Positions 10,882 to 48,098 are shown, numbered from the stretch's first letter. The stretch is DNA of 48,399 nt from Chthonomonadales bacterium (GCA_038217285.1 JBBQPO010000012.1:1-48399); one strand, 5' to 3'. The notes: generated from the sequence alone by a model not told the origin. Program-made: numbers and translations.

Positions 10882-12286
10882 TGGGTTTGCCTTTGGAAGC
10901 GAGATAGATCGGACGACCCGCTGCGGTCGGGATCGGTTTGGTGCGATCGATGCCGAGTTTCTCATAGATGGTGGCCGCATAGTCTTCGATGGTGTAGGCC
11001 ATCGAACTGGTGATATAGCCGCCGTCCCTATCCGTAGAACCGACGACCTGACCGCCGGGAACGCCCGCTCCTGCGAAGGCGAAGCTGAAGGAGTGCGTCC
11101 AGTGGTCGCGGCCCTGGCGCTCGTTGATGTGGGGGGTGCGTCCGAACTCGGTGACGAAGCAGACCAGCGTCTCGGCCAGCAGACCGCGCTGGTGCATATC
11201 TTCGATCAGCGTGGAGAACGCCTGATCGGTGGATCCCATCATCGGCCAGGTCTGGATGCCGAAGCGGCCCGCTCCCGCGCCTCCACCTTTGATGTTGGTG
11301 TTCCCGGTGGCGTAGATGGCGTCGTGGTGATCCCAGTTCATGTTGTTGCCGCCGTCATAATGGACGGGCTTGCCGTCCCGATAGGAGTTCATCGGTTCGC
11401 GAGCGTCGATAGTGACGTACCGGACGCCCGACTCGATCAGCTTCCGGGCGAGCAGGTAGCACTGCCCCCGGTGGCCCAGGCCATACTTCTCGCGTACCGC
11501 CGTCGGTTCGCTGCCCAGATCGAAGGCCTTGCGCGTTAAGGGATTGGTCAGCATATCGGCTGCCTGGCCCATCAGCGCGCGCATCGCCTCCACATCTTTC
11601 GAACGGCCTGCATTGACGTAGCCGACATCGAGGGAACTGAGCAGATCCCGGCGATCTTTGAACCGGCGCTCGTCGATCCCGGCGGCAAGCCCCAGGTTCG
11701 GGACTTTCCAGGTGGGGTCGGCAGGACTCCCGCCCGTTTTGAAGACCGCATAACCGGGCGGAAGAAAACCGACCTGAGATGTGGGCGCCTGCTCGCTGGT
11801 GCCCGGTAAGAGAATATTGGAGGGAAGGTAGAGAGCGTCGGTGCCGACACGGTGCGCGACAACGCACCCGATGTCCGGCATCTCTACGGGGCCGCCGGGC
11901 GCCTCTCCCGAGAAGATATACTGCGAGCCTTTCGGGTGGGAGTTGCCGATCCCCGGCGTCGGCTGCGTCATACAGCGTACGACCGTCAGCTTGTCCGCGA
12001 CCTGTGCGGTTCGGCTCAGCAGTTCGGTAAAGTAGACTCCGTCGGCCTTCGTTTTGATCGTTTTGAAAGGACTACGATGTTCGGCAGGAGCGTCCGGCTT
12101 CGGATCCCAGGTATCCATCTGAGAAACGCCGCCCTGCTCGAAAATGACCAGAACTTGTTTCGCCTTCCCGGTTCCGACGCTGCGTTCGGCAGACGCGCTC
12201 AGGTCGATGCCGGTCATGGCGGCCAGCATCCCGCCTAGGCCGATCCCGATAAAGTTACGACGCGGTAGATGAAGCCCTGAACTCAT
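10865..12286 (-). CDS. DUF1501 domain protein (Tat-like signal)
   Basis: PRRNFIG twin-arginine motif, GGVSQMDTWDPKP, LLARKLIESGVRYV, WDHH and TEFGRTPHIN..GRDHW motifs. ATG 12286 follows a CAGGAG RBS. Confidence 0.93.
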   Translation of the reverse strand: MSSGLHLPRRNFIGIGLGGMLAAMTGIDLSASAERSVGTGKAKQVLVIFEQGGVSQMDTWDPKPDAPAEHRSPFKTIKTKADGVYFTELLSRTAQVADKLTVVRCMTQPTPGIGNSHPKGSQYIFSGEAPGGPVEMPDIGCVVAHRVGTDALYLPSNILLPGTSEQAPTSQVGFLPPGYAVFKTGGSPADPTWKVPNLGLAAGIDERRFKDRRDLLSSLDVGYVNAGRSKDVEAMRALMGQAADMLTNPLTRKAFDLGSEPTAVREKYGLGHRGQCYLLARKLIESGVRYVTIDAREPMNSYRDGKPVHYDGGNNMNWDHHDAIYATGNTNIKGGGAGAGRFGIQTWPMMGSTDQAFSTLIEDMHQRGLLAETLVCFVTEFGRTPHINERQGRDHWTHSFSFAFAGAGVPGGQVVGSTDRDGGYITSSMAYTIEDYAATIYEKLGIDRTKPIPTAAGRPIYLASKGKPIVELF

Positions 12287-12370
12287 CCTGATCTCCTGTC
12301 TCTGCCATACGGTGTGGGGCGCAAGCCGCACACGCTCGTCGTGCAGTCGCGCCGATCTCCCCATTCTTAC

Positions 12371-12376
12371 ATTATA
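12371..12376 (-). promoter_or_regulatory. Candidate -10 element for the DUF1501 operon
   Basis: Perfect TATAAT on the minus strand about 85 bp upstream of the start in GC-rich DNA; no well-spaced -35. Confidence 0.4.
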
Positions 12377-12479
12377 TCCTATCGGCCGCCACAATAGTTG
12401 CGAACTAAATTGTCGATTGCTTCGTTGACACGGTAGCGGTCAAAATGCCGGAATGCCCGCCCGATAGAGGAGAACCTTC

Positions 12480-13097
12480 ATGACCCTGACACCATCTGAC
12501 CCTGATTCGCCGACGACGCTGAACGATGCCGGTCTCGATCTGCTGTTTCGGGAAGCGCGGACCTACACGGCATGGCTGGCGAAGCCAGTGTCTGACGAAC
12601 AGCTTCATGCGATATACGACCTGTTCAAATGGGGGCCGACAAGCGCCAACGCGTCTCCGGCTCGCGTCCTGTTCCTGAAAAGTGAGCAGGCCAAGGTGCG
12701 ACTGCTGCCGGCGCTCGCGCCAAACAATGTCGAAAAGTCCCGGACGGCTCCGGTGGTTGCCGTGATCGCCTACGACCTGGAGTTCTATGAAAAACTGCCG
12801 GAACTCTATCCCGCAGTAGATGCGCGACCCTGGTTTGCGGGCAAACCCGATGTCATCCAGGAGACGGCCTTCCGTAACAGTTCGCTTCAGGGAGCCTACT
12901 TCCTTCTCGCAGCGCGTTCTATGGGACTCGACTGCGGCCCGATGTCCGGCTTCGATGCGGCTAAAGTGAACGCCGAATTCTTTCCGGACGGCAAATGGAA
13001 GGTCAATTTCGTCTGCAACCTTGGCTACGGCGATCCGGAAAAACTGTTCCCTCGCAACCCACGCCTGGCGTTCGACGACGCCTGTAGGGTTCTGTAG
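12480..13097 (+). CDS. rutE: Malonic semialdehyde reductase (RutE-like nitroreductase family)
   Basis: LFREARTY, WGPTSANASPAR, AFRNSSLQGAY, GLDCGPMSGFD and PRNPRLAFDDAC motifs; AGGAG RBS. Confidence 0.85.
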   Translation: MTLTPSDPDSPTTLNDAGLDLLFREARTYTAWLAKPVSDEQLHAIYDLFKWGPTSANASPARVLFLKSEQAKVRLLPALAPNNVEKSRTAPVVAVIAYDLEFYEKLPELYPAVDARPWFAGKPDVIQETAFRNSSLQGAYFLLAARSMGLDCGPMSGFDAAKVNAEFFPDGKWKVNFVCNLGYGDPEKLFPRNPRLAFDDACRVL

Positions 13098-26978: not shown

Positions 26979-27008
26979 GTAACCTCCTTTGGAGAGCAGG
27001 GCGGGCTG

Positions 27009-27200
27009 TTGCAGCTCGGCGAAGACTTTCGCACCTTCCAGGCATCGACGTTCGTCACTCCGTCCTGTCCAGAAGACACGTCGGGGCACAGCATCTTCAG
27101 CGCTGCCGCCGCCGAAGTGCTGAAACGGTTCAAGAACAGCGATGCTCTGGGCTTCTCCGTCTCCTTCGCGCCATGGGGCGTCTCGTGGGAGCCGCCGTAT
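27009..27200 (+). pseudogene. Fragment of a vanadium-dependent haloperoxidase / PAP2-superfamily gene
   Basis: FRTFQASTFVTPSCPEDTSGHSIFSAAAAEVLKRFKNSDALG resembles TPPFPEYxSGHSxFSAAAAEVLxxFxGSD. The rest of the gene is missing. Confidence 0.7.
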
Positions 27201-27391
27201 GGGATAGAGCCCAGACCTACATCAACGGCGCTTGAAATCGAGCGGCAATTCTCTCGATTCACCTGCCGCCCGACGGAGTATACACGATCTGGATCTCAGC
27301 TCGTGGCGCAGGCGGCAAATACGTCGTTCCTCTCGTCGATGCCGATAGAACACCCGCCTCAACGGGTCGAGGGTGTGCGCTTTGTGAGGGA

Positions 27392-27946
27392 CTATTTCTT
27401 GAACTTCGCGGCGTGCTCCAACATCCAGAGACAGGCCAGCTTGGTCGCACCCAACTCGTTGAAAAAGTGATTCCGCGCCTCGCTGGACTTTATGGCCGTG
27501 AGATGGCGCGGATTCATGCCAATGCTCTCCGCGAACGCTTTCTGAGTAATGCCTTGTTCACGCATCTGAAGGAGTAAACTCTCCAGCGTCACGCTTTGTA
27601 GATAAGAGTGAAGATCGTCAACATGCTTCACTTCTTCCGGTTGTTTTGCCTCTATAACATGAAAGGTTGCGGGGTTCTGAAGAAACGTCTGTGCCAGGGC
27701 TTCACAGTGGTGGCAGTAGCCGCCCTTTCCGACATAGCAACTACATGCCGCCACAATTTCCTGGTCTTTGAATTCGATAGACACCGTGTAGGTGCCGTGG
27801 TTGCCGACCGTCTTCGCGACGATCTTGTTTCCAACCAGGGTAGAATCGAAAAATGTACCGACGTACTTTTGTGCATTGGGGCTTGGCGCTACGGACCATT
27901 GACGTTGCACAAAGGTCTTTAGTTTTGCGGAATCGAAGTCTGGCAT
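27392..27946 (-). CDS. SWIM zinc finger + XRE-like HTH protein
   Basis: VGNHGTYTVSI..ACSCYVGKGGYCHH (CxCxnCxH) and C-terminal MREQGITQKAFAESIGMNPRHLTAI; GGGAGGA RBS. Confidence 0.75.
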   Translation of the reverse strand: MPDFDSAKLKTFVQRQWSVAPSPNAQKYVGTFFDSTLVGNKIVAKTVGNHGTYTVSIEFKDQEIVAACSCYVGKGGYCHHCEALAQTFLQNPATFHVIEAKQPEEVKHVDDLHSYLQSVTLESLLLQMREQGITQKAFAESIGMNPRHLTAIKSSEARNHFFNELGATKLACLWMLEHAAKFKK

Positions 27947-27994
27947 AATAGGTTTGTCCTCCCACCGATACTGATGGTCGTGTGCTCTCTTAAC

Positions 27995-28522
27995 TCATCC
28001 CGTGCCTGCGCCATCCGTGGGCAGGTACGGGATGAGTCCCTTCTTATAGGCGACCTCTTGGATTTCACGGGGCAGATGCCGGGCATCCACGATGAATCCG
28101 TTGACCATGATCATCCATGCCAGGAGGTTGTCCTCCATTTTGCTGGGACGGCACCACTGCGGATCCATCTGGCTCATGTTCAACGCGTTCCGAACCGCTT
28201 TACCTTTGCTGGCGCCGGTGCTCGTACTGAGTCCAAAGGCCTCGCACAACTCTGCGGCGCTCATGGAGGGCGTCTGGCACTTATCGAAAAGAAAGTTTAC
28301 GGTCCCAAGCGCATAGGCGATCCCGCACGCCCAACTCCGGATGTTCCCGGTCAGGAGCGGAGAAGGTCGCTGCCGACACAGCGCTGCCGCGGCCTGCCGA
28401 GCCAGTTGGGTATACTCCTCATCCAGCCGGGAGGTGCAGAACGCATCGGTCAGCGCGACGATCCCGTTGAAGGTGTCCTGCATCGCGACAGGAACCTTTT
28501 CGGATTTGCTGATTCGAGCCAT
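27995..28522 (-). CDS. DUF6398-family protein
   Basis: LTDAFC..LDEEY..LCRQRPSPL..WACGIAYALGTVNFLFD..ELCEAFGLS pattern. ATG 28522 follows AAGGAGG. Confidence 0.75.
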   Translation of the reverse strand: MARISKSEKVPVAMQDTFNGIVALTDAFCTSRLDEEYTQLARQAAAALCRQRPSPLLTGNIRSWACGIAYALGTVNFLFDKCQTPSMSAAELCEAFGLSTSTGASKGKAVRNALNMSQMDPQWCRPSKMEDNLLAWMIMVNGFIVDARHLPREIQEVAYKKGLIPYLPTDGAGTG

Positions 28523-28648
28523 GGGTGTTTCCTCCTTCATCAAGAGCGCAGAACAAACCGCTTGATATTTGACGCGAAGATCGGCGATGATAGGATCTCG
28601 ATTTCGCCGTTTCCGACGCTGTGCCTCCGTGTAGATTCGCTCGCTGAC

Positions 28649-28654
28649 ATTATA
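28649..28654 (-). promoter_or_regulatory. Candidate -10 element for the DUF6398-SWIM pair
   Basis: TGGTATAAT on the minus strand about 130 bp upstream of the DUF6398 start. Confidence 0.4.
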
Positions 28655-28784
28655 CCATCGAGTACAGTTCAGCCCTGCTGTTGGACCACAATGGTGGTCA
28701 GTTCGTCATAAGTTGGAGTGGCAGACTTGCTCATAAGCAGCATTACGAACGGACAGACATAAAATACTCACCAGTCTGAACAGT

Positions 28785-28814
28785 ATCCATAGCCTCCTGA
28801 TCCATAGCCTCCTG
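28785..28814. repeat. 15-bp tandem duplication
   Basis: atccatagcctcctg x2; on the minus strand CAGGAGGCTATGGAT x2, a duplicated RBS plus ATG. Confidence 0.9.
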
Positions 28815-28831
28815 TGTGAATGGTTCCATTT

Positions 28832-30313
28832 TTAAGAAAATTCGGGTAGCGGGAAGGTAACAATAACCCTCCCTCCGCCTTTCTCACGGTTCTCATACGC
28901 TGTCTGCCCCCGCAAATCCCAATGCACAAAGCTCTCGATGAGTTCCAATCCTGTGTTCGCCGCCTTCTTGGGGTCAAAGTCGGTGGGGAAACCGGGGCCA
29001 TCGTCACACACTTCCAACTGCGCTATTCTGTGTCCGCCTTCTTCTGCCTTCTGCGGCAACAGCGAGAGCGTAACTTCCACATCACCTTTACCATGTTTGA
29101 GGGCATTAGAAACCAGTTCGTTGACCAGCAGCACAAACGAGCCAACCTGTTTCAGAGTGGAACGCATCTCGTCCGCCCGAATGCAGATTTTCCGGTTGCC
29201 TGCGGTGACTTGCAGCAGGGGAACCAGTTTCTCCAATGCGGCGCTTAGAGAAACGACGTCCTGGTCTGTGGCGACTTTCGATTCCAACGTCAGCAAGTCG
29301 TGAAGGGTCGCCATGGTGAGAATATGCTGCCCGATGCGCCGCAGGTAAGAAACGGGAATCGTTTCCTCGGTGTCAGGCATTTGCATTTCGACCAGGGCGG
29401 AAAGCATCTGCAGGTTATTCTTGATCCGGTGGTGCGATTCCGCGACGGCGCGCTGCAACCGGGCGTTCAAATCTGTAATCTCCCGTTGCGCCTGCTTTTG
29501 CTCGGTCACGTTCAGGGTCGTGCCAATGATGCGCTGCATTGTGCCTTCGGTGTCGCGCATAACCCGGCCCTGCTCGAACACAGAGATATAGTGGCCTTCA
29601 CGGTGGCGGACACGGTATTCTTCCTCGTAGGCGCTGTCGGTCGCATGGAGGCTCGAAATTTTTTCTTGTGGGGCTTTCAGATCGTCAGGATGCATTTGGC
29701 CCGCCCACCATTCGGCGGTTGGGGGAACCTCCTCCGGGGCATACCCCACGAGCTTGTGCAATCCTTGTGAGCGAAAGACACACGCGGTTTCCAGGTTCCA
29801 GTCGAAGATAAAGCCGTTCATGGTATCCAGCGCCAGACGAAGCCGCTCCTCACTGGCGTTCAGCGTGGCTTCGTAGCGTTGCCGTTCGGAGAGATCGTAG
29901 AAGTGGCATACCGCGCCGAACCGTCCGTCAGGCAGTGTCAAGCGCTCAATCTTCCAGTCATAGGACTCGACCTTGCCAATGTCCTGACGGCGCTCGACCG
30001 TGCTAGGCGCGTGGTAAGGCTCACCCGTCTCCAGCGTGTGGTGGAAGAGGCCGATAACCTCGCTGGCGAACGGATCAGGCCAAATAAGATGTATCACCTC
30101 CGCAAAGTCGCGACCAATAAGTGGGCGCACATTCTCGAAAACCTTCTGCGCCCCGGCGCTCACCTGCACCAGCTGGAAATCGGCGTCCACCACGTAAATG
30201 CCAAACGGCGAGTAGTCCACCAGATGCCGGAACGTATCGTGTGCGGCACGCAAAGCTTCCTCACCCTGTTTGCGCGCCGATACATCTTGACTAATAGCAA
30301 CGGTATGGATCAA
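28832..30313 (-). CDS. PAS/PAC sensor histidine kinase (HisKA_2 type), N-terminally truncated
   Basis: Two PAS domains, ESHHRIKNNLQ H-box, NELVSNALKHG, DDGPGFP and TGLELI. The ORF begins in the middle of a PAC motif whose first half lies upstream of TAG 30329-30331. Confidence 0.85.
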   Translation of the reverse strand: MIHTVAISQDVSARKQGEEALRAAHDTFRHLVDYSPFGIYVVDADFQLVQVSAGAQKVFENVRPLIGRDFAEVIHLIWPDPFASEVIGLFHHTLETGEPYHAPSTVERRQDIGKVESYDWKIERLTLPDGRFGAVCHFYDLSERQRYEATLNASEERLRLALDTMNGFIFDWNLETACVFRSQGLHKLVGYAPEEVPPTAEWWAGQMHPDDLKAPQEKISSLHATDSAYEEEYRVRHREGHYISVFEQGRVMRDTEGTMQRIIGTTLNVTEQKQAQREITDLNARLQRAVAESHHRIKNNLQMLSALVEMQMPDTEETIPVSYLRRIGQHILTMATLHDLLTLESKVATDQDVVSLSAALEKLVPLLQVTAGNRKICIRADEMRSTLKQVGSFVLLVNELVSNALKHGKGDVEVTLSLLPQKAEEGGHRIAQLEVCDDGPGFPTDFDPKKAANTGLELIESFVHWDLRGQTAYENREKGGGRVIVTFPLPEFS

Positions 30314-30399
30314 CCTTTTCTCCTCATCCTAAATGGGAACTGCATGGACGACTATCGTTCCGGTTGTGCCGTCGAAGCGCTCAAAGATGAATTCACGTA

Positions 30400-30673
30400 C
30401 CAGCAGGCAAGCGAAAAACAGTACGTTGCCATTCTACGCAAAATGAGGCGATTCCTGCAAACGTTCTAGTGGACGTGAACGATGCCTGCATTTCAGAAAC
30501 ACAATCACGGTGCGGAGCATGGATGGCATTACATTATCGGGCTGGAGCCGGGGATACCGGAGGACATCACCGATTTGGAGAACGCTCTCCATCCGCCGGA
30601 ACCGTTTCATTCCGTCAAAATCGGGCGGAAATACAAGAAGTGTTGTGATGAAACGGTTGCGGAGGAAGGATAA
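30400..30673 (+). pseudogene. Remnant of a SEC-C motif protein 3' end
   Basis: PPEPFHSVKIGRKYKKCC matches SEC-C (KIGRNDPCPCGSGxKYKKCC) lacking its central residues; in-frame stops lie upstream. 5' limit approximate. Confidence 0.55.
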
Positions 30674-30720
30674 ATATCCTTCTGCGTAGAAATGAAGGAG
30701 AAATATGGAGGAGACGGTCA

Positions 30721-31476
30721 TTGACTCTGGATAGCGCATTGCAAGAACATGAGGAGCAGGTGGATACCCTGCTCAAGGCGGCGACCAAGTATGTTGGGGC
30801 TCTGAAGGCCTGGAAGAAAGCCTGTCAGATAGGTCATATCGGAAACTTACAAAAAGCAGCGACGACGGCCGGGGAGTTGAGTCGCACTCTGCCCGGAACG
30901 ACCGCAGAAACAAAGAGCGCGTGGAGTTTCGACGTACAGGACTATCTGGAAACCGACGCCTGGCGCAAAGAACTGCAGGCGACTGCGGCGGAGCGCTTCA
31001 GCCTTCGGACGCTGGAAGACGAAGAGACGCTGATCTCCTCTCCGATCACGGTACGCGCGCTGCCTGCACGCGGTCTTTTGGCGCTCGGCAAGGTCAACTG
31101 GCCGGCCCTTCGCCCTAAAGTGGTTGCCGCCGAACTCAAGCGCCTGCGGGATCGCACGGCGGGAGCCAACTCCCAGGAGTTCATCGAGAGTCTCTTCGGC
31201 GCCTGCGTCCAACTCAGCAGTAAGAGTGACCCCCACGCCAAATTTCGCGACATCTACGATCTGTTCTGCCTGACCCCCGGCTACAAAAAAGAGAATCCGC
31301 CCGCCGCGTTCGGACAGCAGCTTTATGCGCTGCATCGTACCGACCTCCGCATGACGCGCGCTGGCCGTAAACTTGAGATCGAGGGCGCCACCGGGAGCTA
31401 CAAAGAGAAGGACGTCTTCACCGTCATCTCCGAAGATGGTCGTCCCATCCGCTACTTCACGATCTTCTTCAAATAG
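30721..31476 (+). CDS. Hypothetical protein, first gene of the BrxD-like ATPase/SNF2 operon
   Basis: 251 aa, GGAGGAG RBS before TTG, helical N-terminus; the C-terminus may be winged-helix-like (weak). Confidence 0.8.
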   Translation: MTLDSALQEHEEQVDTLLKAATKYVGALKAWKKACQIGHIGNLQKAATTAGELSRTLPGTTAETKSAWSFDVQDYLETDAWRKELQATAAERFSLRTLEDEETLISSPITVRALPARGLLALGKVNWPALRPKVVAAELKRLRDRTAGANSQEFIESLFGACVQLSSKSDPHAKFRDIYDLFCLTPGYKKENPPAAFGQQLYALHRTDLRMTRAGRKLEIEGATGSYKEKDVFTVISEDGRPIRYFTIFFK

Positions 31477-31493
31477 ACCAGGAGGCCGCACTG

Positions 31494-32606
31494 ATGGCAG
31501 AACCGCTTCCCTCTTTGACAGTGGAAGACTGGCTGGCGACGGTAGAGTATGAGTATCTTGCGGACTATGTGCGCTCCGGTGGGTCTGCCGTCAAGGTCAT
31601 CTCCGGGACGGACGCGCAACTCAAGCAGGTCGCCGGCCGTGTGCATGCCCTGGCGGCGTCCGGCGACTATTTTACAGCCCATCTCGATCCTGGGCAGCCA
31701 GATGAGATGGGCAAACGCCCCGACCTGCACCGTATAGACCGCTTCTTCTTCAAGGTCACGGAGGCGGTCGATTGGAAGGCGTGGGCGGCGATTCAGGCAC
31801 GGCAGTATCTGGAGACCCAAGGTATCCATCTCGCGGAAGGCCGCGCGCTCGGCGACCTGGAACAGATCGCGTTGGACAACGGCAGGGATTCGCAGGACCT
31901 GCTCAACCAGTACCAGCGCGAACTGGTCACGCCGCAGATCCGCGACACGCGGCTCTCGATAGAGTTCCGTACCGCCGTCACCGCGCTCGGGCGCGCTCTG
32001 CTCATTCCCGACGCCGTCTCCCCGACGTCCGAAGAGGTGCTGCTGGGCTGGTTCTCGGGGCAGGCGCTGCCTGGGGCGGCCTCCGCGCTGAAAAAGGTGC
32101 AGATATACGAGCGGATCAATCTGGCGAACGCGCGCCCCATGCTCGTCTCCTTCTGCCACTGGCTGCCGCAGACCGGCCACTCCGGCCTGGTCGTCACGCT
32201 CGATTTTCGACCCTACGAGTTTAAGAAGATCGCCAAAGGCAAACGGCAAGCGGAACAGCTCCAGAAGGTGCGTGAAGCTCTCTCGCGCGGCGCGTCCTCC
32301 GAGGAACTCGCACGGTTGGCGGAGGAGGAGAACAGTGTGGAGCCCGAACTCCACTACAGCGACGCGGCCTATATGCAGATGCTGACGATGTTACGCCGGT
32401 TCATCGACGAGATCGACCGGTTCGAGCGGTTCTTCCTGGTTGTCCTCACCAGTCCCAACTTCTACAAAGACAAAACGCTCGACCCGACCGTAAAACGCTG
32501 CTATTTCGACTACGATGCGCTGCAGACGCGCATCGGGCAAGAGGTGCATGACGCCCGTTACGCCAATCCTGCCGCGTCGCTCGTGCAGTTGGGAGGTGCC
32601 GAATGA
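31494..32606 (+). CDS. BrxD/DUF2791-like P-loop protein with degenerate Walker A
   Basis: YVRSGGSAVKVISG followed by TDAQLKQ where GxGKT is expected. Also AFR-like EFRTAVTAL..LLGWFSG, INLANARPML, GHSGLVVTLD, MLRRFIDEID and YDALQTRI, matching DUF2791 patterns. Confidence 0.7.
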   Translation: MAEPLPSLTVEDWLATVEYEYLADYVRSGGSAVKVISGTDAQLKQVAGRVHALAASGDYFTAHLDPGQPDEMGKRPDLHRIDRFFFKVTEAVDWKAWAAIQARQYLETQGIHLAEGRALGDLEQIALDNGRDSQDLLNQYQRELVTPQIRDTRLSIEFRTAVTALGRALLIPDAVSPTSEEVLLGWFSGQALPGAASALKKVQIYERINLANARPMLVSFCHWLPQTGHSGLVVTLDFRPYEFKKIAKGKRQAEQLQKVREALSRGASSEELARLAEEENSVEPELHYSDAAYMQMLTMLRRFIDEIDRFERFFLVVLTSPNFYKDKTLDPTVKRCYFDYDALQTRIGQEVHDARYANPAASLVQLGGAE

Positions 32607-33829
32607 GTCCGGAAGTTGTGGAGGCGAGAAGCGCGATCGAATCGCTGCGTTCGGGGGTTCCAAGCCGGGACGTGGTCGCGCAGTTGGGAACCACGCAGCA
32701 CGATGTGCGCGAGCGTTTTGAAGAGTCGCTGGACGCGCTGGCGGCAGGGCAGGGGGTGAGTCCGATCATTATTTCGGCGACCTTCGGTGCGGGCAAGACA
32801 CATCTGCTCAACTACCTGCAAGCGCTTGCGGAGCGAGAGGGGTTCGTCACGAGTTACGCGGTCATCAGCCCGGAGATGCCGCTGGGCAATGCACATATGG
32901 TCGTGAAAGCCCTCTCCGAAGCCGCGTCCGCACCCGGACTGACCGGGAAAGCCGTGCGCGCACTGGCCGCCAACCTGCGCACCGATTCGAGCGCCTATCA
33001 GGAGCTTCAGGGTTGGGCGCGGAGCGCGACGATCGACGACCGGTTTCGGGCGCTGCTCCATCTCTACGAGGCTTTTCGGGCCGACGAAGAGTTTCGCGTT
33101 CAGATCCTCAACGACTTCGAGGGGCGGGCGATCCTGAAGACCATCCTCAAGAATCGCCTGAAGCAGATCAACCAGGCCGCCGCTTACGATCTGACCGGGC
33201 CGCGCAGCGCCTTCGTGGCCCATGATCGCATCCGTCTGCTGGCGCAGTTCTTTCGCGCGAGTGGCTGCAAGGGCTGGGTCGTCCTGTTCGACGAGATGGA
33301 GCGCGTCGGGAAGTTCTCCCTCAACCAGCGACTGGCAGCCTACTCGGAACTGGGCTGGTGGCGTGAGGCGGCGGAACAGGCCGGCAGTGCGCTCCTGCCC
33401 GTCTTCACGACGGCGAGCGGCTTCGTTACCGAGTCGGTCACGGGTGGCACACACGACGAACAGCGGCTGAGTTCCGGCGGCTTCGCACAGGACGAAAGAG
33501 ATCAACGCGCGCGGCGCGGGATCGAACTGCTCAAAGCGCCCTTCCGACTGGAATCGCCGACCCGAGAACAGGAGGCCGAGATCGAATATCGCGTCAGAGC
33601 GATCTACGAAGCGGCTTACGGTACGACGGTTCCACCCCTGCCGGCAGCGCGGAACGACGTTCGGATCTCGATCCGCTCGGAGATGCGACGCTGGATCACC
33701 CTGTGGGATCTGCACCGGTACTATCCGGCCTATCAGCCGGAGGTAGAGGTGGGGGAGATGCATTTCGACGCGACCGCCATCGCGGACACCGACATCGTGC
33801 CGGAGGATGAGGACGGAGCGCGGGAGTAG
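32603..33829 (+). CDS. BrxD/DUF2791-family ATPase (BREX system ATP-binding domain)
   Basis: ARSAIESLRSGVPS N-terminal motif, Walker A ATFGAGKTHLL, GFVTSYAVISPEMPL and Walker B GWVVLFDEME. ATGA overlap with the upstream gene. Confidence 0.85.
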   Translation: MSPEVVEARSAIESLRSGVPSRDVVAQLGTTQHDVRERFEESLDALAAGQGVSPIIISATFGAGKTHLLNYLQALAEREGFVTSYAVISPEMPLGNAHMVVKALSEAASAPGLTGKAVRALAANLRTDSSAYQELQGWARSATIDDRFRALLHLYEAFRADEEFRVQILNDFEGRAILKTILKNRLKQINQAAAYDLTGPRSAFVAHDRIRLLAQFFRASGCKGWVVLFDEMERVGKFSLNQRLAAYSELGWWREAAEQAGSALLPVFTTASGFVTESVTGGTHDEQRLSSGGFAQDERDQRARRGIELLKAPFRLESPTREQEAEIEYRVRAIYEAAYGTTVPPLPAARNDVRISIRSEMRRWITLWDLHRYYPAYQPEVEVGEMHFDATAIADTDIVPEDEDGARE

Positions 33830-33832
33830 CTT

Positions 33833-34369
33833 ATGCCTGTCCCTTATCGCAAAACACCCCGCGCCGCCGAGTTCGGTCAGGCCGCTTACCTGGACATCGT
33901 GTGGCTGCCTTCCGACCGGACTCTCTATGGTGGCCTGCTGGTCCTGGATGGAAAGGGACAGCCGCAGGAGTTCGTCCACAACACGCTGGCTGCGCCATCC
34001 GGCCTGCTCTGGCCGGACGACAAGGTACAGTCGCTTGGCATCGTCATGCTGGCGCACTCCCTATTCGACGCCTGCCGCCGCGAACCCGATCTGCTCATCG
34101 GCCTGCCCACCCTCGGCTCGCCCGAAACGTGCCGAACGGAGATCGCGCCGTCCATTCCGTTTGTCCAGGTTATTCCGGCCCAGGACGGGATTCCGGCGCA
34201 ATGGAACTGGATGAACGAGCCGCCCTCCGGCGCGATGCGAGCGGCCATCCTGGCGCAGGAGCTAGAGCGGCGCGGCTTCATTGTCGAGCCGTTCGAGCGG
34301 CTGCACCACGCGCTCCGTCTGGTCTATCCGCAGGCGGCCTGGCACGGGGGCGACGAGGATGCAGCTTAG
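33833..34369 (+). CDS. Hypothetical protein
   Basis: 178 aa, starts 3 nt after the ATPase stop and overlaps the helicase start; YGGLLVLDGKGQPQEF..PDLLI..EPFERL pattern. Confidence 0.75.
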   Translation: MPVPYRKTPRAAEFGQAAYLDIVWLPSDRTLYGGLLVLDGKGQPQEFVHNTLAAPSGLLWPDDKVQSLGIVMLAHSLFDACRREPDLLIGLPTLGSPETCRTEIAPSIPFVQVIPAQDGIPAQWNWMNEPPSGAMRAAILAQELERRGFIVEPFERLHHALRLVYPQAAWHGGDEDAA

Positions 34370-36023
34370 TGTCGGGGTGGCGAAACGCGAGAAGGTCGGT
34401 GCCTTTCGACAGGGTGTGCCCGCCTATTTCGAGGTAGGAAACTGGGAGTTGGGCCGCGCTATCCGCCACACGGTCGGCTGGTTCGACTACGACACGCTGG
34501 ACGATCCCTCGCTGTTGGGTGGAGAGGCGGGGGAAGGCGAAGGTGCACAGTCCTCACTCTCCGAGGCTGCCGACCTGATGCGGCGGTTGGCGGCGGCCCT
34601 CCAGCCTTCCTGTACCACCCTGGCGACGCCGGACGGCGTTCTGGAGTGGCCTGCTCCCCTGCTGCCCTATCAGCGCGAAGGCGTCCTGGCGCTGCTGTCG
34701 CGCAACGCGCTGCTGCTCGCAGACAGCATGGGCCTCGGAAAAACGATTCAGGCCATCGCTGCGCTGCGCATCCTTATCCACCAGGGGAACCTCACAACGG
34801 CATTGATCGTCTGTCCCGCCTCGCTGCTTACCCAGTGGCGGCGTGAGTTGGCACGGTGGGCTCCCGATCTGAAGGTGGTTCCCGTGTCCGGCAGTCCGTC
34901 GGTTCGCGGTCATCTCTGGCAGTTGCCCGCGCATATCAAGCTGGTCGGTTACGAGACGCTGCGCGCCGATGTCATGGATCTGCGGGACAGTCCGGTACTG
35001 CAGAAGCCGTGGGGCGTCGTGATTCTGGACGAAGCCTCCCGCATCAAGAATCGGCGCTCCTCCGTCGCTATCGCCTGCAAACGTGTTCCGCGTGAACGTC
35101 GCTGGGCCCTCACTGGCACACCGCTCGAAAACAGCGTGGATGATGTCGCCTCCCTCCTCGACTTCCTGCTTCTCGATCCGGATGCGCCTCCCCCTCCGCC
35201 ACTCGGGCTTGCCGAACTCAAAGCGCAACTCCTTGCCAACCAACTGCGGCGTCGGAAAGAGGATGTGCTGCCGGATCTGCCGCCGAAACGGATCAGCGAT
35301 GTCGTCATCGAACTGCCCACCCGGCAGCGCGAAGCCTACGATCGCGCCGAACAGGAGGGCATCGTGCAGTTGACGCAGGCGGCGGGCTCCGTGACCATCG
35401 TCCATGTCCTGGAGTTGATCTCCCGCCTCAAGCAGTTGTGCAACTACGATCCCAGCAGCGGCGAGTCGGGCAAACTGGCGGACATTCGAGAGCGGATGGT
35501 TGCTCTAGTGGCAGAAGGACAGCGGGCGCTCATCTTCTCCCAGTTTACGGACGATATATTCGGTATCGGAAGGCTCTCCGACGTCCTGCGCGAATTTCAG
35601 CCGCTGACCTTCACCGGCAGCATGAGCCTCCGCCAACGTGCCGAGATCGTCGAGCGGTTTCTCCAGCACCCACAACACAAAGCCCTGCTTCTCTCCCTGC
35701 GCGCCGGAGCCCAGGGGTTGAACTTGCAGACCGCCTCCTATGTGTTTCACTTCGACCGCTGGTGGAACCCCGCTATCGAGGAGCAGGCGGATGGTCGTGT
35801 GCATCGTATGGGCCAGACCTATCCCGTCACGATCTACCGCTATATCTGCGCCAACACCATTGAAGACCGCATCGACGCCAAACTCCGCGAGAAACGGAAG
35901 ATGTTTCAGGAGGTCGTGGAGGATGTCAGCCTGGAACTGACGACAGCCCTCTCCGAACGGGAGATATTCGATCTGGTCGGCATCTCCGCACGGCACCCTA
36001 TTCGCAGAGCAGATCCCCGTTAG
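34359..36023 (+). CDS. SNF2-family (SF2) helicase/translocase
   Basis: LLPYQREG, LLADSMGLGKTIQA, LIVCPASL, ILDEASRIKN, LTGTPLEN, LIFSQF, GAQGLNL and WWNPAIEEQADGRVHRMGQ motifs. Start proposed at ATG 34359. Confidence 0.93.
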   Translation: MQLSVGVAKREKVGAFRQGVPAYFEVGNWELGRAIRHTVGWFDYDTLDDPSLLGGEAGEGEGAQSSLSEAADLMRRLAAALQPSCTTLATPDGVLEWPAPLLPYQREGVLALLSRNALLLADSMGLGKTIQAIAALRILIHQGNLTTALIVCPASLLTQWRRELARWAPDLKVVPVSGSPSVRGHLWQLPAHIKLVGYETLRADVMDLRDSPVLQKPWGVVILDEASRIKNRRSSVAIACKRVPRERRWALTGTPLENSVDDVASLLDFLLLDPDAPPPPPLGLAELKAQLLANQLRRRKEDVLPDLPPKRISDVVIELPTRQREAYDRAEQEGIVQLTQAAGSVTIVHVLELISRLKQLCNYDPSSGESGKLADIRERMVALVAEGQRALIFSQFTDDIFGIGRLSDVLREFQPLTFTGSMSLRQRAEIVERFLQHPQHKALLLSLRAGAQGLNLQTASYVFHFDRWWNPAIEEQADGRVHRMGQTYPVTIYRYICANTIEDRIDAKLREKRKMFQEVVEDVSLELTTALSEREIFDLVGISARHPIRRADPR

Positions 36024-36051: not shown

Positions 36052-37683
36052 TCATGTATCTGAGGAGGAGGGCGTCTGGGCCTGCCACATGGTCCAGTTT
36101 CCATTGAACAGTCGCGGGGGGCCGTCCTGCTCGAATACGAGCAGTTGCGTGGTGACCTTATCCAGAAAAAAGCGGTCATGGCTGACGACCACAACAGCTC
36201 CCGGAAAGTGGATCAGCGCCTGCTCCATCACCTGGGTACTGGTCAGATCGAGATGATTTGTCGGCTCGTCCAGGACCAGAACCTGCGCCCCGGAGAGCAG
36301 ACACTGGGCCAGGGCGACCCGCGCCTTCTGCCCCCCGGAGAGCGTTCCGATCCGCTGCTGAAGGTCCATTTCTGAGAACTGCAGCAATGAGAGAAAGCGG
36401 TTTACCTGCTTACGCTGCGCCTGGCCTGCCATGCTGAACTGCCCGCCGGTTGTGTTCACGGCATGCGTGACCGTGTCTTTCAGGTCGAGATCTCTCTGCA
36501 CCGCGTTGAAGTCGGCGAAGGAGACTCCGCGCTCCCACACGACCTTGCCGGAGTCGGGAGTTTCCTGGCCCGTCAGGAGGCGCAGCAACGTGGACTTGCC
36601 GCTGCCATTCGAGCCGATGACGCCTAATCGCTCTCCCCGCGCCAGTTCCAGCGTGACCCCTTCAAAGAGACGATGTTCGCCGTAAGCATGGGCTACCTCT
36701 TCCACACGACACAAACGGTCGGGGATGCGAAGGCCCTGATAGAGACTGGTGATGATGGTGTCGATGGGGCGAGGGGTACGGCGTTTGCGGATATCCGCCA
36801 GTTTGCGGTGCAGGGTGTCACTGGGATCACGGGCCAACTCCTCACGGTCGGAAGCCGCTTCACCTTCCAGAGTCAGCATCTCTTCCTCATGTTCGAACTG
36901 CCGTTCCAGCGTTTTAAGGCGGAAGGGTTTGGTACGTACATAGTGGGTGTAGTTGCCGGGATAGTCGTGGAGATGATAGTTTTCCACCTCCACCACACGC
37001 GTCACCACTTTGTCGAGGAACTGCCGGTCGTGCGAGACGAGGAGCAGCCCGCCGCGGTAGTCCCGCAACCACGATTCCAGCCAGGCCAGTCCTGCTACGT
37101 CCAGAAAGTTCGTCGGCTCATCCAGAAGCAGCACATCGGGCTGTTCCAGCAGGATGCGCGAGAGGGAGGCCCGAATACGCCAGCCGCCCGAGAGTTCGTC
37201 GATAGGCTGGTGGCGGCGTGTGGCGTTGAACCCGAGTTTGGTCAGCACGGTGTCGATCTGCCTTGGGTAGTCCCACCCGCCCCGAGACTCCATCTCCTCT
37301 AGCAGGTGCGCCTGCCGATCGATCAGTCGTTCCATCTCCGCCATGTCGGTGACCGTCTGAAGCGCGAGGCCAATCCGGTCCAGTTCGGCCTCGACGGCTC
37401 GCAGATCGGCGAACAGGGCTTCGAGCACCTGCTGGATCGAGGCCGTGCCACTCAAGTCGGAGAACTGAGAAAAGTATCCCAGTCGGATGCCTTGGTTGAC
37501 CTCGACATCGCCTTCGTCCGGCTCCTCTTCACCCAGAATCAGGCGGAGCAGGGTCGTCTTACCCGCGCCGTTTCTGCCGAGCAGTCCGACACGCTCACCT
37601 GCCCGCAGGCGGAAAGAGACATCGCGCAAGACCAGACGATCATCGTAACGCTTGGTGACGCGGCTGATACGTACCAGGCTCAT
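36052..37683 (-). CDS. ABC-F family ATP-binding protein
   Basis: Two ABC domains (GRNGAGKT / LSGGW / LLLDEPTN and GSNGSGKS / LSGGQ / VLDEPTNHLD), VSHDR, no transmembrane segments. Confidence 0.93.
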   Translation of the reverse strand: MSLVRISRVTKRYDDRLVLRDVSFRLRAGERVGLLGRNGAGKTTLLRLILGEEEPDEGDVEVNQGIRLGYFSQFSDLSGTASIQQVLEALFADLRAVEAELDRIGLALQTVTDMAEMERLIDRQAHLLEEMESRGGWDYPRQIDTVLTKLGFNATRRHQPIDELSGGWRIRASLSRILLEQPDVLLLDEPTNFLDVAGLAWLESWLRDYRGGLLLVSHDRQFLDKVVTRVVEVENYHLHDYPGNYTHYVRTKPFRLKTLERQFEHEEEMLTLEGEAASDREELARDPSDTLHRKLADIRKRRTPRPIDTIITSLYQGLRIPDRLCRVEEVAHAYGEHRLFEGVTLELARGERLGVIGSNGSGKSTLLRLLTGQETPDSGKVVWERGVSFADFNAVQRDLDLKDTVTHAVNTTGGQFSMAGQAQRKQVNRFLSLLQFSEMDLQQRIGTLSGGQKARVALAQCLLSGAQVLVLDEPTNHLDLTSTQVMEQALIHFPGAVVVVSHDRFFLDKVTTQLLVFEQDGPPRLFNGNWTMWQAQTPSSSDT

Positions 37684-44712: not shown

Positions 44713-46140
44713 TTACGCCTTTTCGAAGCGGGAGAGCCAGGGATGGCGCGCCTGGAAGCGCGACGCTTGTTCCGGGTTCACCATGTGCAGGAACGAGAGG
44801 TAACCTGCCGCGTAGAGCATCGCGTTTTTGCCGAGGCGCTCCGAGACGGCAGCAAAGCCTTCTGTCTCGCAGTGATGCAGGAAGGCACGGAAACGGCGCG
44901 TGTCCTGTCGCGAGACGCTCGGGGTCTCGTTGACGACCACGCCGGTGACTGCCTGCCGGTGTTGCGGGCGCATGACGCGTGTCTTCTCCTCGTTGATCAC
45001 ATGCCCCTCGGCTGCGATAACCGAGCGGGCAAGTCCGAGCAAGGGACCGACAGGAGCGTTACCTTCGGCATGCGAAAAGACGAGGTCATCGGCATAGCGC
45101 GTGTAGGCAAAGCCGAAGGCGGCGGCGAGGCCAGTCAGGCGGGCATCAAGCCGACGGCAGAGAATGTTGGTCAGCGCGGGTGAGGTGCAAGCGCCCTGCG
45201 GGAGGGATCGTGCGCCGAGTGCGATAAACCGCTTCTCGCCGTCCAGCGTCGCGGCGACCCGGGGGCTCTCTGTAGTGAGCAGAGCCAGCAGGGTCGCGAT
45301 ACCCTCGTTGTAACCGAAACTCGCGAACAGTCCCCGCACCCGGCGCATCCGGATAGACGGGAAGAAGTCTTTCAGGTCCAGACGAACCACTACCGCTTTC
45401 CCGGTGTGCTGCCGGGCGTTATCGAGGATCGAACGCCGGGCGCGAAACGCCATCGCCGCATCGTGTACCGCGATCTTGTTCAGGAGGTTTGTCAGTATCC
45501 AGCTCTGCCCAACGCGCAGGCGCCGTTTTGGGGAGGAGATGACCCGCAAACCGCCGCTTCGCTTGGGGATGGTAAATCGGGAATAGTGATCGACGGTGGC
45601 AGCGCCGCGATGATACGTCAGCCAACCCAGTTCTTGTGTGGTGATGCCGATCGCCTTCGCCAACTCTGCAGCCGTGGTCAGGAGAGGAAGCCTGAGGTCC
45701 GCGAGCTTTTCGGGATCTCCGCCTTCGTAGCGGAGGCCGGCCGAGAAGCCTTCGCCGAGGTATGGGAGCGTCGTCTGGCGGCGAACTCTGTCCTGTTCGT
45801 GCCGCTGGGCGTTGCGCTCCCGTGTCTCTGCGCGACGGACCTCTCTCGCCGCCCGAACCCGAACGATACGTTTCTTGCGGACCTCCTGCAGTAACTGCGC
45901 GACGTTGCCGTCTAGGCGCAGCTCCTTGTCGATCTCTCGCAGCTCCGCCTGGAGCGGACGGAGCTCGGCGTAGAGCGTCTGCAGTTTTGCCTCCGCCTCC
46001 TCGGCCGTTTTCTGGACGCCCTCCTCGGGAGGCCAGTAGCCGAGCCGCTCCATCTCCTCGCGAATGAACTCGGCCTTGCCGACCTCCTGGACGCGGGTGC
46101 GCCAGTTGGGCAGGCTCGATATGGTCGTCTCATCGCTCAC
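44713..46140 (-). CDS. Retron-type reverse transcriptase (Mx162-like, long N-terminal extension)
   Basis: [20 protein letters not shown], retron region [36 protein letters not shown] and region [13 protein letters not shown] 46140 overlaps the upstream TGA; 475 aa. The 804-aa ORF in the track is an over-extension. Confidence 0.92.
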
Positions 46141-48098
46141 GATCTGCCCTCCAGCATCGCTTGAAACTGCGCTTCGGTCAATACAGCGACGCCCAGTTGC
46201 TGCGCCTTCGCCAGTTTGCTGCCCGCCTTGTCCCCCGCGACGAGATAGGTGGTGTTCTTGCTGACGCTGCCCGTCGCTGTTCCGCCCCTTGCCTGTACCA
46301 GCCCCTCGGCCTGATCGCGAGTGAAGAGCGTCAGAGCCCCCGTAAAGACGAATGTTTTGCCGGCGAAACAGGTCGGGTCGACGGTGGCGACAGGCTTGAT
46401 GTCCCGGCGCGCCACCTGGAGCGCCACCTGCTCGGCGACGACGATACTGGCCGCCAGTATATGAGGACAGGGGCCTTTCCGCAGCCGATCGCGCCGAAAA
46501 ATCGAACAGTCGCACTGCGCGTACTGCACACGTCCATCGCCGTCGATCTCCAGCACGACCTCCTGCTCTTTGCGCCCGCGGGCATCCTGCCTTACCATCG
46601 CCTCGCAGCGTACCCGCTCGGGTCGGGAAGCCGGAGGCTCCTCGCTGCCCCACTTTACCCCTTTTGAATCGATGATGCGTTTGGCCTGCGCGACGCGCCT
46701 GTCCTGTTCTGTCTCCGGGAACGCTACCGGAAACGGCAGCAGCGGACGCCAGCGATAGGCGCCCGTCACATGGTCGTACATCGCCTGTCCTCGCGCGCAG
46801 CAGTTTTGCAGAACATTCGTCGCCTCGTCCTGCTGGATTCCGAGACGCTGCGCCAGTTGCAGTGGCGTCAACGTCAGGTACTCCGCGAGAACGTATTCTG
46901 CCTGCGTGATCTGCTCCGGCTTCACCTCCGCTGTCGCCGCCAGTAGATCGAAGCGTGCGGCCTGCGCCCAGTCGTTCTTGGTCCATCCGGAGAGGCCGAG
47001 GTCGAAGCGCATCTCCTTCTGAAAGATCGTCCAGTAGGAGGGCATGCCCCCGCCGAGCAGCCGCACCTGCACGCGATCTGCATGCGGCAGAAGATGCTCC
47101 ATGACGAGGAGGCGCCGCCGCCCCCACAGCCGGATTTCGCCCTGGTAGTCGCCAGTGTAGACGTGTTCGGCTTCGCGAACCACGATATTCCAGGGCTCGA
47201 TGGTGATGGTCGGCCTTTCGCCCGGAGTAATCCCGAAGCGCAGGGAACGAGGACTGGTCTTCTCACGGCAGCGGCGCAGTACCGACAGAACCTCCGCCAT
47301 TGTCGCCGCGCTTAACTGCAGGTCGACCGCCCCGAACGCAGAGGCCGACTGCACCTGCAAAAAGCCGCGCACCCATGTCGGCGGCAGATCTATCTTCTTC
47401 TCGACGGCAGCGCCTGCGCCGGTCGCCACCGTCACGCCCTCCGCGCCTATCTGGAGGAAGGCAGGGCGGTAGCTGCGGATCCGGCGTATCTCGTCGGCGA
47501 GCGCGCGGCTGTAGTCGATATTGGTGGTGCCGAACCGCAGCTCCCCGAACGTCTCGAGCCGGTCCATCGGTACCGAGACGCGCCCGTAACTCGATTCATC
47601 CTGCGAGAAGACTTCGAACAACACGACATCGGGATGGACGCTCACGACAGGGTCGAGGACGTACCAGGCGTCCATGTCATTCTTGTAGAGCCATTTGAAG
47701 TATTTGCGCCTCTGGGCGTAGAAGACGCCGCCATAGGCGATATCTTTCAGGGGATGAGCCGCCTTCGAGAGCGCTCCTACCTTCGCCGCCACCTCTTTGC
47801 GTCGCGCGGTCAGCGCAGGCGTCCGTGCCGCCCTGTCTCGAAACTCGTCGCCCATCTCCTCCAGATACCGCTCCGCGACCCAGGTCTGGTAGACGGAATG
47901 GTTCTTGGGCGTTGATCGCAGATCGCCCGTGACCACCTCATAGAGCGCCAACATGACGCGGGCATAGGCGAGGCTATCGTTGACCATCGCTTCCAGGTGC
48001 ACGCCGGGGCGCGCCGCCTCGACCGGCATATCCAGATGCATGCCATCCGGTTCGAGCCTACCGTTGCCAGGACGCGCATAGTTTTGTGTGATCTCCAT
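46137..48098 (-). CDS. Winged-helix + SWIM zinc finger + BRCT protein (retron type XIII partner-like)
   Basis: [48 protein letters not shown], wHTH (LAQRLG..GQAMYD..GAYRWR), SWIM CDC..GPCPH and [42 protein letters not shown]. Confidence 0.88.

Follow-up and report, generated by a model that had tools for sequence, protein, structure and literature searches.

Five tightly packed genes at positions 30721-36023 of a 48,399-nt stretch from a Chthonomonadales bacterium (GCA_038217285.1, JBBQPO010000012.1:1-48399; the whole stretch analyzed is called the window here) form a real, conserved module. The genes, designated A to E and all located on the + strand, encode a protein of no known family (A), a degenerate and an intact BrxD-type ATPase (B and C), a protein with a predicted endonuclease V-like fold that is probably not a nuclease (D), and an SNF2 translocase (E). 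We propose that together they make up a self-contained cassette for DNA surveillance, which is most likely an unnamed system of the restriction kind acting against phages or plasmids, and we put the chance that this reading is right at about even.

Organization and conservation of the cassette

Gene A (30721-31476, + strand) encodes 251 amino acids (aa) and opens at a TTG, with the sequence GGAGGAG located 8-14 nt 5' of this start. It is followed on the same strand by gene B (31494-32606, +, 370 aa), gene C (32603-33829, +, 408 aa), gene D (33833-34369, +, 178 aa) and gene E (34359-36023, +, 554 aa). Read from the sequence, the junction between A and B is a 17-nt gap, B and C share an ATGA overlap, C and D are joined by TAG-ctt-ATG with a 3-nt gap, and D and E overlap by 11 nt. 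The mechanical open reading frame (ORF) of gene E opens at a TTG at 34281; the ATG that begins the 554-aa form was preferred because homologues begin there. A preliminary description of this stretch, made from the sequence, had reported five co-directional genes with these junctions. All five ORFs and all four junctions were confirmed, as were the families it had called: B and C match PF10923, E matches SNF2-rel_dom and Helicase_C, and A and D match no family. Upstream the cassette is bounded by a divergent PAS histidine kinase gene (28832-30313, - strand), and downstream by a convergent ABC-F ATPase gene (36052-37683, - strand), with 29 nt separating the latter from the end of gene E. A scan for promoters and terminators returned the same counts as for shuffled sequence, and Rfam and tRNA scans of the window gave no match.

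Related loci were gathered in two scans, one of genomes taken at one per species (22 loci) and one of metagenomes (25 more loci). Among the genome loci all five genes are present in order in 14 of 22, seven are cut by a contig end, and one (L003) differs. Fifteen genome loci extend 1 kb or more beyond D, and 14 of them keep the order A-B-C-D-E; of the 8 metagenome loci with this extent, 7 have gene E, again in the order A-B-C-D-E. Recurrence of the order in 21 of these 23 loci, which come from four phyla, shows that the arrangement is not due to chance. The earlier suggestion that the genes form one module is borne out to this extent, as the 178-aa and SNF2 genes travel with the ATPase pair. 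The two loci that depart from the order, L003 (5384-6250) and the metagenomic L033 (5384-6250), which lacks gene E, belong to one Chthonomonadaceae lineage and have a 288-aa ORF after D in place of the SNF2 gene. In L003 this ORF has no Pfam match at E <= 1e-6 and no PADLOC match at E <= 1e-5, and the contigs end soon after it; the ORF could be an insertion or an alternative partner.

The BrxD-type ATPase pair

Gene C matches the Pfam family PF10923 (BrxC_BrxD, DUF2791) over residues 8-343 with an E of 9.6e-21 and 74.6 bits, where the gathering cut-off is 22.2. Among PADLOC models it matches BrxD (E 5.4e-15) and, over residues 8-94 only, SngB (E 3.5e-8). The protein has a Walker A motif, FGAGKTH (FG-x-GK[ST]H in the family), and a Walker B DE, and residues G62, G64, K65, D230 and E231 are invariant in an alignment of 13 sequences. 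By these signs gene C encodes an intact BrxD-type (ORC/Cdc6-like) AAA+ ATPase, which is the sole C-type ATPase in this 6.2-Mb, 95%-complete assembly.

Gene B also belongs to PF10923 (E 5e-8, 32.7 bits, with the same gathering cut-off of 22.2) and matches the PADLOC BrxD model at E 1.6e-8, residues 26-237 aligning to profile positions 47-245. Both proteins score below the 350-bit cut-off of the NCBIfam BrxD equivalog NF033438, at 56.6 bits for C and 32.3 bits for B. No GxxxxGK[ST] is present in the alignment of 16 gene B sequences, and the Walker B position reads VVTLDFRP, in which D237 is invariant and is not followed by DE. Because the P-loop is missing and the Walker B position has this altered form, gene B is considered a dead, Walker-A-less paralogue within the BrxD (ORC/Cdc6-like AAA+) family. 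Its paralogy is based on the Pfam, PADLOC and NCBIfam BrxD matches, because a direct comparison of the B and C family profiles with hhalign was not significant and matched 12 columns only. The preliminary description had spoken of tandem ATPases, which is correct in that both genes fall in PF10923; since B has no Walker A, however, they are not two working ATPases. Prediction of a complex of B and C (residues 1-375) with A as partner gave scores of 0.01 and 0.26 against a mark of 0.32, and is evidence neither for nor against such a complex.

The SNF2 motor and nucleases in related cassettes

Gene E matches SNF2-rel_dom (PF00176, E 1.9e-47, 162.2 bits) and Helicase_C (PF00271, E 1.5e-18, 67.5 bits). 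Motor motifs I, II, III and VI, which read GLGK, DEAS, TGTP and QAxxRxHRxGQ, are invariant in 15 sequences, while the N-terminal 100 or so residues are variable. The sequence is that of an intact, minimal SNF2 translocase. It matches 48 PADLOC families, the best being ZorD (E 3.4e-65) and DpdE (E 4.9e-63), followed by DrmD; further matches include BrxHI (E 3.5e-27) and, weakly, HmaA (E 1.4e-20). Against NCBIfam ZorD the protein scores 145.8 bits, below the cut-off of 1500, and among PHROGs it matches the phage helicase family phrog_62 (E 4.2e-94).

No nuclease domain was found in the gene E of the window. The Mrr_cat domain (PF04471) is carried by 23 of the best 120 E homologues, which are proteins of 625-734 aa, and by the gene E products of three related cassettes (L012, E 8.5e-22; L041; L044). 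Several of the Mrr-bearing homologues lie on contigs equal in size to those holding A or D homologues. Going by these sequences, the window contains the commoner, nuclease-less form of the cassette.

Extra DNA between B and C is a trait of the clade in which the SNF2 protein usually bears Mrr (L012, L014, L015, L041 and L044). In L015 it encodes a Uma2-family putative restriction endonuclease (11849-12451, E 8e-33), in L041 a protein matching PADLOC PDC-S03 (11868-12581, E 7e-24), and in L014 a DUF6530 ORF follows B. A decayed remnant, L042 (200-1118), has residues 1-213 of A running directly into the final 65 residues of an Mrr domain, as might result from an internal deletion of B to E.

Gene D and its endonuclease V-like fold

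Gene D matches nothing in Pfam, PADLOC v2, NCBIfam or PHROGs, and a profile search against sequences of the Protein Data Bank (PDB) returned nothing below E 0.3. Its predicted model (predicted local distance difference test score, pLDDT, 87.5; predicted template modeling score, pTM, 0.83) is an RNase H-like domain. Foldseek gave 45 matches at E <= 1e-3, with endonuclease V (EndoV; 3hd0, E 7.6e-6) and the C-terminal half of UvrC (2nrt, E 8.1e-6) first and Argonaute PIWI domains next. An independent aligner, VIA, also matched the model to 3hd0 (Z 10.3, root-mean-square deviation 3.5 Å over 139 residues), to 2qh9 (Z 10.2), to AfAgo (6t5t, Z 9.3) and to UvrC (8b0q, Z 8.9). The predicted fold is therefore RNase H-like and nearest to EndoV, the UvrC C-terminal domain and PIWI. 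The 178-aa protein had been called unknown in the preliminary description, which holds for its sequence family; the predicted fold now places it within this clade.

The likeness to EndoV is one of predicted fold, which is common to the EndoV/UvrC/PIWI clade of RNase H folds, and it is not accompanied by a sequence match. Comparison of the D family with four EndoV sequences in hhalign gave a probability of 0.45%, which is not significant, and the alignment served only as a guide to columns; in it the two share a 'PDLL(I/V)' strand start. Searching 1.84 billion representatives with a profile of D gave 211 relatives at E <= 1e-3, counted as representatives at 50% identity, and the 120 of these that are 150-210 aa long were aligned to represent the wide family. 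Position 21 of D lies opposite the strand-1 Asp of EndoV, a placement taken from the non-significant alignment. The window's own subfamily has D here. Of the 120 members of the wide family, however, 60 have R and 19 have K, which makes R/K in 79, and only 7 have D. A swap of charges is also apparent. In the wide family R/K21 occurs with E94 in 68 of 120 members and with D64 in 50 of 120, and in the window's subfamily D/E21 occurs with K/R64 in 14 of 27, also with L/F94. We infer from these pairings that positions 21, 64 and 94 form a salt bridge at a former metal site. The polar residues that are kept across the whole family, E46, E152 and R156, are not the RNase H catalytic set, and the window's subfamily lacks the Asp that follows strand 4.

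Because the canonical catalytic positions are not conserved, D is probably a non-catalytic adaptor or reader rather than a nuclease; D had been entertained as the nuclease effector, and this was dropped after the wide-family conservation analysis. Nor is D assigned to the EndoV family (PF04493), as it has no Pfam match, the aligned catalytic positions are not conserved and the fold alone is common. Gene fusions fit an adaptor role, in that they show D to be in evolutionary contact with both the ATPase and the motor. A distant relative (P0388) consists of a D-like part (residues 6-180, 26% identical to D) joined to an SNF2 part (residues 198-661, 51% identical to E); P0385 is a fragment of another such D-like/SNF2 fusion, and P0368 is a fusion of C-like and D-like parts. 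A search for canonical endonuclease V (PF04493) detected none in this genome, which is 95% complete, and detected it in only 4 of 26 genomes searched (this one and 25 relatives), while a control search found it in 7 of 14 well-known genomes.

Gene A

No match to gene A was found in Pfam, PADLOC v2, NCBIfam or PHROGs, and a profile search against PDB sequences gave nothing below E 0.3. By sequence it is a member of no known family. There are 187 homologues, and the best 120 of them are 55-99% identical to it; A and D each have roughly 170-190 homologues in 5.8 billion clusters, largely from Armatimonadota metagenome bins. The Protein Atlas gave only unnamed 'hypothetical protein' clusters, whose commonest known phyla are Planctomycetota, Chloroflexota, Acidobacteriota, Armatimonadota and Actinomycetota. 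An alignment of 24 sequences has 43 invariant columns, and the protein is 53-55% identical between phyla.

In the predicted model of A (pLDDT 83.7, pTM 0.53), residues 3-66 form a helical hairpin at the N-terminus, residues 98-127 a small beta unit, and residues 132-250 a C-terminal part of helices and strands. Fold searches with the model matched the hairpin only, with Z of about 9, and this match is generic. Foldseek returned nothing at E <= 1e-3. Its weak rows, with E of 0.2-2 and probability of 0.3-0.4, include forkhead and RctB, and the C-terminal part (approximately 132-250) may be a winged helix in the predicted model.

Occurrence and transfer between phyla

The related loci come from Armatimonadota, Planctomycetota, a bin labeled Myxococcota/'Deltaproteobacteria' and a bin labeled Janthinobacterium. 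In a tree of concatenated A, B and C proteins (13 rows, midpoint root), three Planctomycetota and one Myxococcota sequence form a clade with support of 100/99 that is nested among Armatimonadota, and flanking genes differ between cassette lineages. Metagenome bins, from which such sequences come, can hold foreign contigs. On the sequence evidence the cassette has moved between bacterial phyla. The copy in the bin labeled Janthinobacterium lividum (L015) is sister to that of an Armatimonadota bin (L012) with support of 100/100, which means that either the transfer is recent or the contig was placed in the wrong bin.

Of 61 related genomes, 29 contain a relative of gene A; the figures are 19 of the 44 high-quality genomes and 21 of 39 genera. 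Its occurrence is patchy even within genera, with one of two genomes positive in each of g7, g16 and g20, and some copies are split or truncated (G002, G026, G035 and G057). This pattern of occurrence marks the cassette as accessory. A search of 2.9 million viral contigs, which did not extend to plasmid collections, gave no relative of A. A single viral match to D (L028) extends over 74 residues and is spurious, its neighbors being Hsp70, heme oxygenase and curli genes.

Relation to known systems

Shango consists of the TerB protein SngA, the ATPase SngB and the helicase SngC. The cassette is similar in that a DUF2791/BrxD-type ATPase and a helicase are joined by an accessory protein, and the N-terminus of gene C matches SngB. 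It differs in having a dead ATPase paralogue and an EndoV-like protein in addition. No TerB was found in the cassette, in which A and D are without any PADLOC match at E <= 0.1, and SngC is not among the 25 best of the 48 PADLOC families matched by gene E.

In BREX, according to PMC12839542, BrxD and a helicase form a tight dyad in which BrxD is proposed to load or activate the helicase, and BrxHI is a Ski2/Lhr-like helicase. The cassette resembles BREX types 2 (Pgl) and 6 in this dyad, a standalone BrxD-type ATPase tightly linked to a superfamily-2 helicase, and gene C falls in the same PF10923. In contrast to these systems its helicase is of the SNF2 kind, its ATPase is a pair of one live and one dead protein, and genes A and D have no BREX counterpart. 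PglZ, PglX, BrxC/PglY and PglW were not found in the cassette or among the ORFs scanned at 18.6-48.1 kb of the window, and the related cassettes examined contain no PglZ, PglX or BrxC/PglY.

In the Hma and BREX-related (BR) systems, as described in PMC12839542, the partner of an ORC/Cdc6-type ATPase is an SNF2 helicase, usually one with a C-terminal PD-(D/E)xK nuclease, and HmaA, an SNF2-nuclease fusion, defends against phage T4 according to PMC11232893. The cassette likewise joins an ORC/Cdc6-type ATPase with an SNF2 helicase, and relatives of E carry Mrr_cat as the BR helicases usually carry a nuclease. The N6-methyltransferase of the DUF1156 type that is a defining BR core gene has no counterpart in the cassette, however, and no methyltransferase is found inside the window's cassette or any related cassette examined. 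The ATPase of the cassette is small and BrxD-type (PF10923) in contrast to the multidomain DUF499, and gene E appears to be without the Tudor and inactive-REase domains of BR helicases, judged without structural comparison. With Zorya type I the cassette shares the best PADLOC match of gene E, ZorD, and the SNF2 + Mrr-like architecture seen in 23 of the best 120 E homologues. Neither the cassette nor the set of window ORFs scanned includes ZorA, ZorB or ZorC. The window's E is without a nuclease and scores far below the ZorD cut-off.

Literature searches found no description of this gene set (the supplementary locus lists of PMC12839542 were not covered). In the papers found that mention EndoV together with Snf2 and anti-phage activity, the EndoV passages concern HNH/EndoVII or a UvrD helicase label. 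The preliminary description had noted the absence of PglZ, a methyltransferase and TerB, and none is present in the cassette or among the ORFs scanned at 18.6-48.1 kb. It had also failed to recognize a named system, in agreement with our finding that no PADLOC-DB v2 model matches A or D and that Shango, BREX, Hma/BR and Zorya each fail on a defining feature. As far as could be tested by sequence comparison, the cassette is unnamed and is a variant within the ATPase + helicase(-nuclease) systems.

Proposed function and alternatives

In the mechanism we propose, the live ATPase C would pair with its dead paralogue B as a hetero-oligomer, and the two would be joined by A, which is a coiled-coil protein and may have DNA-binding ability as well, in a module that recognizes or licenses the target. 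D, catalytically disabled, would couple this module physically to the motor E, and may also read an unusual feature of DNA. E would translocate on the target DNA, and in about a fifth of close relatives the Mrr-type C-terminal nuclease would cut it. For the nuclease-less form the final step could be motor-only eviction or stalling of DNA-bound proteins, or cutting by a nuclease from elsewhere. We infer the protein contacts, the effect on DNA, the trigger and the immunity. By analogy, the mechanism would parallel the way BrxD is proposed to load BrxHI or activate it and the ATPase + SNF2-nuclease logic of Hma/BR, as outlined in PMC12839542 and PMC11232893. Because the cassette has no methyltransferase, discrimination of self would be of the type IV kind or would depend on a feature other than host methylation.

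Consistent with a role in DNA surveillance are the conserved gene order, the spread between phyla, the accessory occurrence, and the matches of C to BrxD and SngB and of E to ZorD, DpdE and DrmD. The case for defence in particular rests on the Mrr fusions, the Uma2 gene embedded in relatives, the patchy occurrence and the transfer between phyla. A more specific form of restriction, which we consider unlikely, is a methyltransferase-free, type-IV-like machine in which D reads abnormal bases or structures, B/C and A license, and the SNF2 motor acts. D would then read hypermodified, deaminated or otherwise abnormal bases or structures in invading DNA; the Mrr-bearing forms would destroy that DNA, and the nuclease-less form would strip or stall replication or transcription complexes by translocation.

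Several observations weigh against a defensive function. With no nuclease in the window's E and no conserved catalytic set in D there is no visible effector chemistry. Conservation is unusually high for immune genes, A being 53-55% identical between phyla, and close to half of the related genomes searched carry the cassette. The surroundings of the cassette were scanned with PADLOC (88 + 68 + 54 proteins from 34 loci and the window) and with Pfam (96 ORFs within 4.5 kb of the cassette). A defence-type gene lies within 10 kb at only about 5 of the 35 places, a count made without a comparison to control genes. Those flanking genes that Pfam can name are largely metabolic or housekeeping, many ORFs are without a family, and no integrase or transposase was found within 4.5 kb among the 96 flank ORFs. 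The preliminary description had asked for an association with defence islands, and in these little-studied phyla the association is weak: only a minority of loci have such a neighbor. Defence is a plausible candidate role, and the missing island context weakens the case for it. What stands of the earlier proposal of a distinct, possibly defensive ATPase-pair and translocase module is the distinct and conserved module; the support from islands is weak.

One locus does resemble a defence island. In L019 (3963-9689, in the Myxococcota/'Deltaproteobacteria' bin) a 1908-aa DruE-like helicase (PADLOC DruE3, E 7e-205) is encoded about 300 nt upstream of A, with SNF2 fragments further upstream and a PIN gene downstream. 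Elsewhere, a type II methyltransferase with a RAMA domain lies directly upstream in L022 (about 0.5 kb) and a type II methyltransferase about 8 kb upstream in L009. L008 has a CapH-like helix-turn-helix (HTH) gene, and PIN toxins are near the cassette in L005 and L019. The defence-type neighbor in the window itself is the type XIII retron described below.

A rival reading is a non-immune, accessory genome-maintenance machine, in which the ORC-like pair loads an SNF2 remodeler at damaged or stalled DNA with the EndoV-like protein as a lesion guide, for example in remodeling at forks or transcription conflicts, or in repair. We regard this as possible though doubtful. The folds nearest to D are those of the repair enzymes EndoV and UvrC, and PF04493 EndoV was not found in this genome and is present in only 4 of the 26 searched; the nameable flanks are mostly housekeeping or metabolic with few defence genes, sequence conservation is high, A relatives occur in 29 of 61 related genomes, and most copies, including the window's, have no nuclease. 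A maintenance machine would sit less easily with the patchy occurrence even within genera, with transfer between phyla and the decay of some copies, and with the Mrr fusions and embedded Uma2 gene of relatives; the best matches of C and E are, moreover, to models of defence systems, and the catalytic and lesion-processing residues of D are not conserved.

The cassette might also be a named system (Shango, BREX type 2/6, Hma/BREX-related or Zorya type I) in divergent or reduced form, as is suggested by the PADLOC matches of C to BrxD and SngB and of E to ZorD, DpdE, DrmD, BrxHI and HmaA, and by the union, described in PMC12839542, of an ORC/Cdc6-type ATPase with an SNF2 and usually nuclease-bearing helicase in Hma/BR. 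We find membership of this kind very unlikely, given that no TerB, PglZ, PglX, BrxC or ZorA/B/C is present in the cassette or the window ORFs scanned, that no cassette examined contains a methyltransferase, that the scores fall far below the relevant cut-offs (56.6 bits against 350 for C and BrxD, 145.8 against 1500 for E and ZorD), and that A and D match no PADLOC v2 model and no description was found in the literature. Slightly less probable still is a function in a mobile element (replication, partition or anti-defence of a phage or plasmid) rather than service to the host. ORC/Cdc6-like ATPases and SNF2 helicases are known from mobile elements, the cassette has been transferred between phyla, and E matches phrog_62. 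Against this, the 2.9 million viral contigs yielded no relative of A and a sole, spurious match to D; A, B, C and D match no PHROG; and the 96 flank ORFs scanned within 4.5 kb of the related cassettes include no integrase, transposase or phage structural gene (plasmid collections were not covered). The remaining probability falls to some other function.

Genomic neighborhood in the window

Some 9 kb downstream of the cassette the window contains a type XIII retron. Its reverse transcriptase gene (44713-46128, - strand) matches PADLOC RT_XIII (E 2.2e-155), and the retron partner (46137-48098, - strand) matches SWIM_XIII (E 7.1e-167) and has a C-terminal BRCT domain. The real start of the reverse transcriptase is probably near 46128, because the mechanical 804-aa ORF (44713-47127) overlaps the partner gene. 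Rfam detected no non-coding RNA at the retron (the msr/msd RNA was not otherwise searched for).

On the upstream side, a stretch of low G+C content (27000-30720) extends between a TPR gene and the cassette and holds the intact PAS histidine kinase gene. The G+C fraction is 0.54-0.57 at 27000-31000, compared with 0.58-0.66 in other 1-kb windows. Also located here are a DUF6398 gene (27995-28543, - strand, E 8.9e-40) and an ORF with weak SWIM and HTH matches (27392-27946, - strand). The interval 27000-30720 is absent from the otherwise syntenic locus L001, where an aminotransferase gene lies about 1 kb from A, and by this comparison it looks like an insertion relative to L001. This region had been described as full of gene remnants; the G+C content at 27000-31000 is indeed lowered, but the PAS kinase is intact, the DUF6398 gene is present and no remnant was demonstrated. 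A genome of the same genus was checked for an empty site, and its contig ends 200 nt past the ABC-F gene.

Implications

If the cassette is defensive, it would be a new system with two new protein families, A and D, and would offer a compact setting for testing directly whether BrxD-type ATPases, which are poorly understood, load helicases as has been proposed. With its pair of one live and one dead ATPase, its disabled EndoV-like adaptor and its sister forms with and without a nuclease, the cassette amounts to a natural experiment, which could show how an SNF2 motor is directed to DNA and whether it can restrict that DNA by translocation alone. If it is instead a machine for repair or remodeling, it would represent an unusual bacterial pairing of an ORC-like loader with an SNF2 motor. 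The cassette is found mainly in Armatimonadota and Planctomycetota, phyla with few catalogued immune systems.

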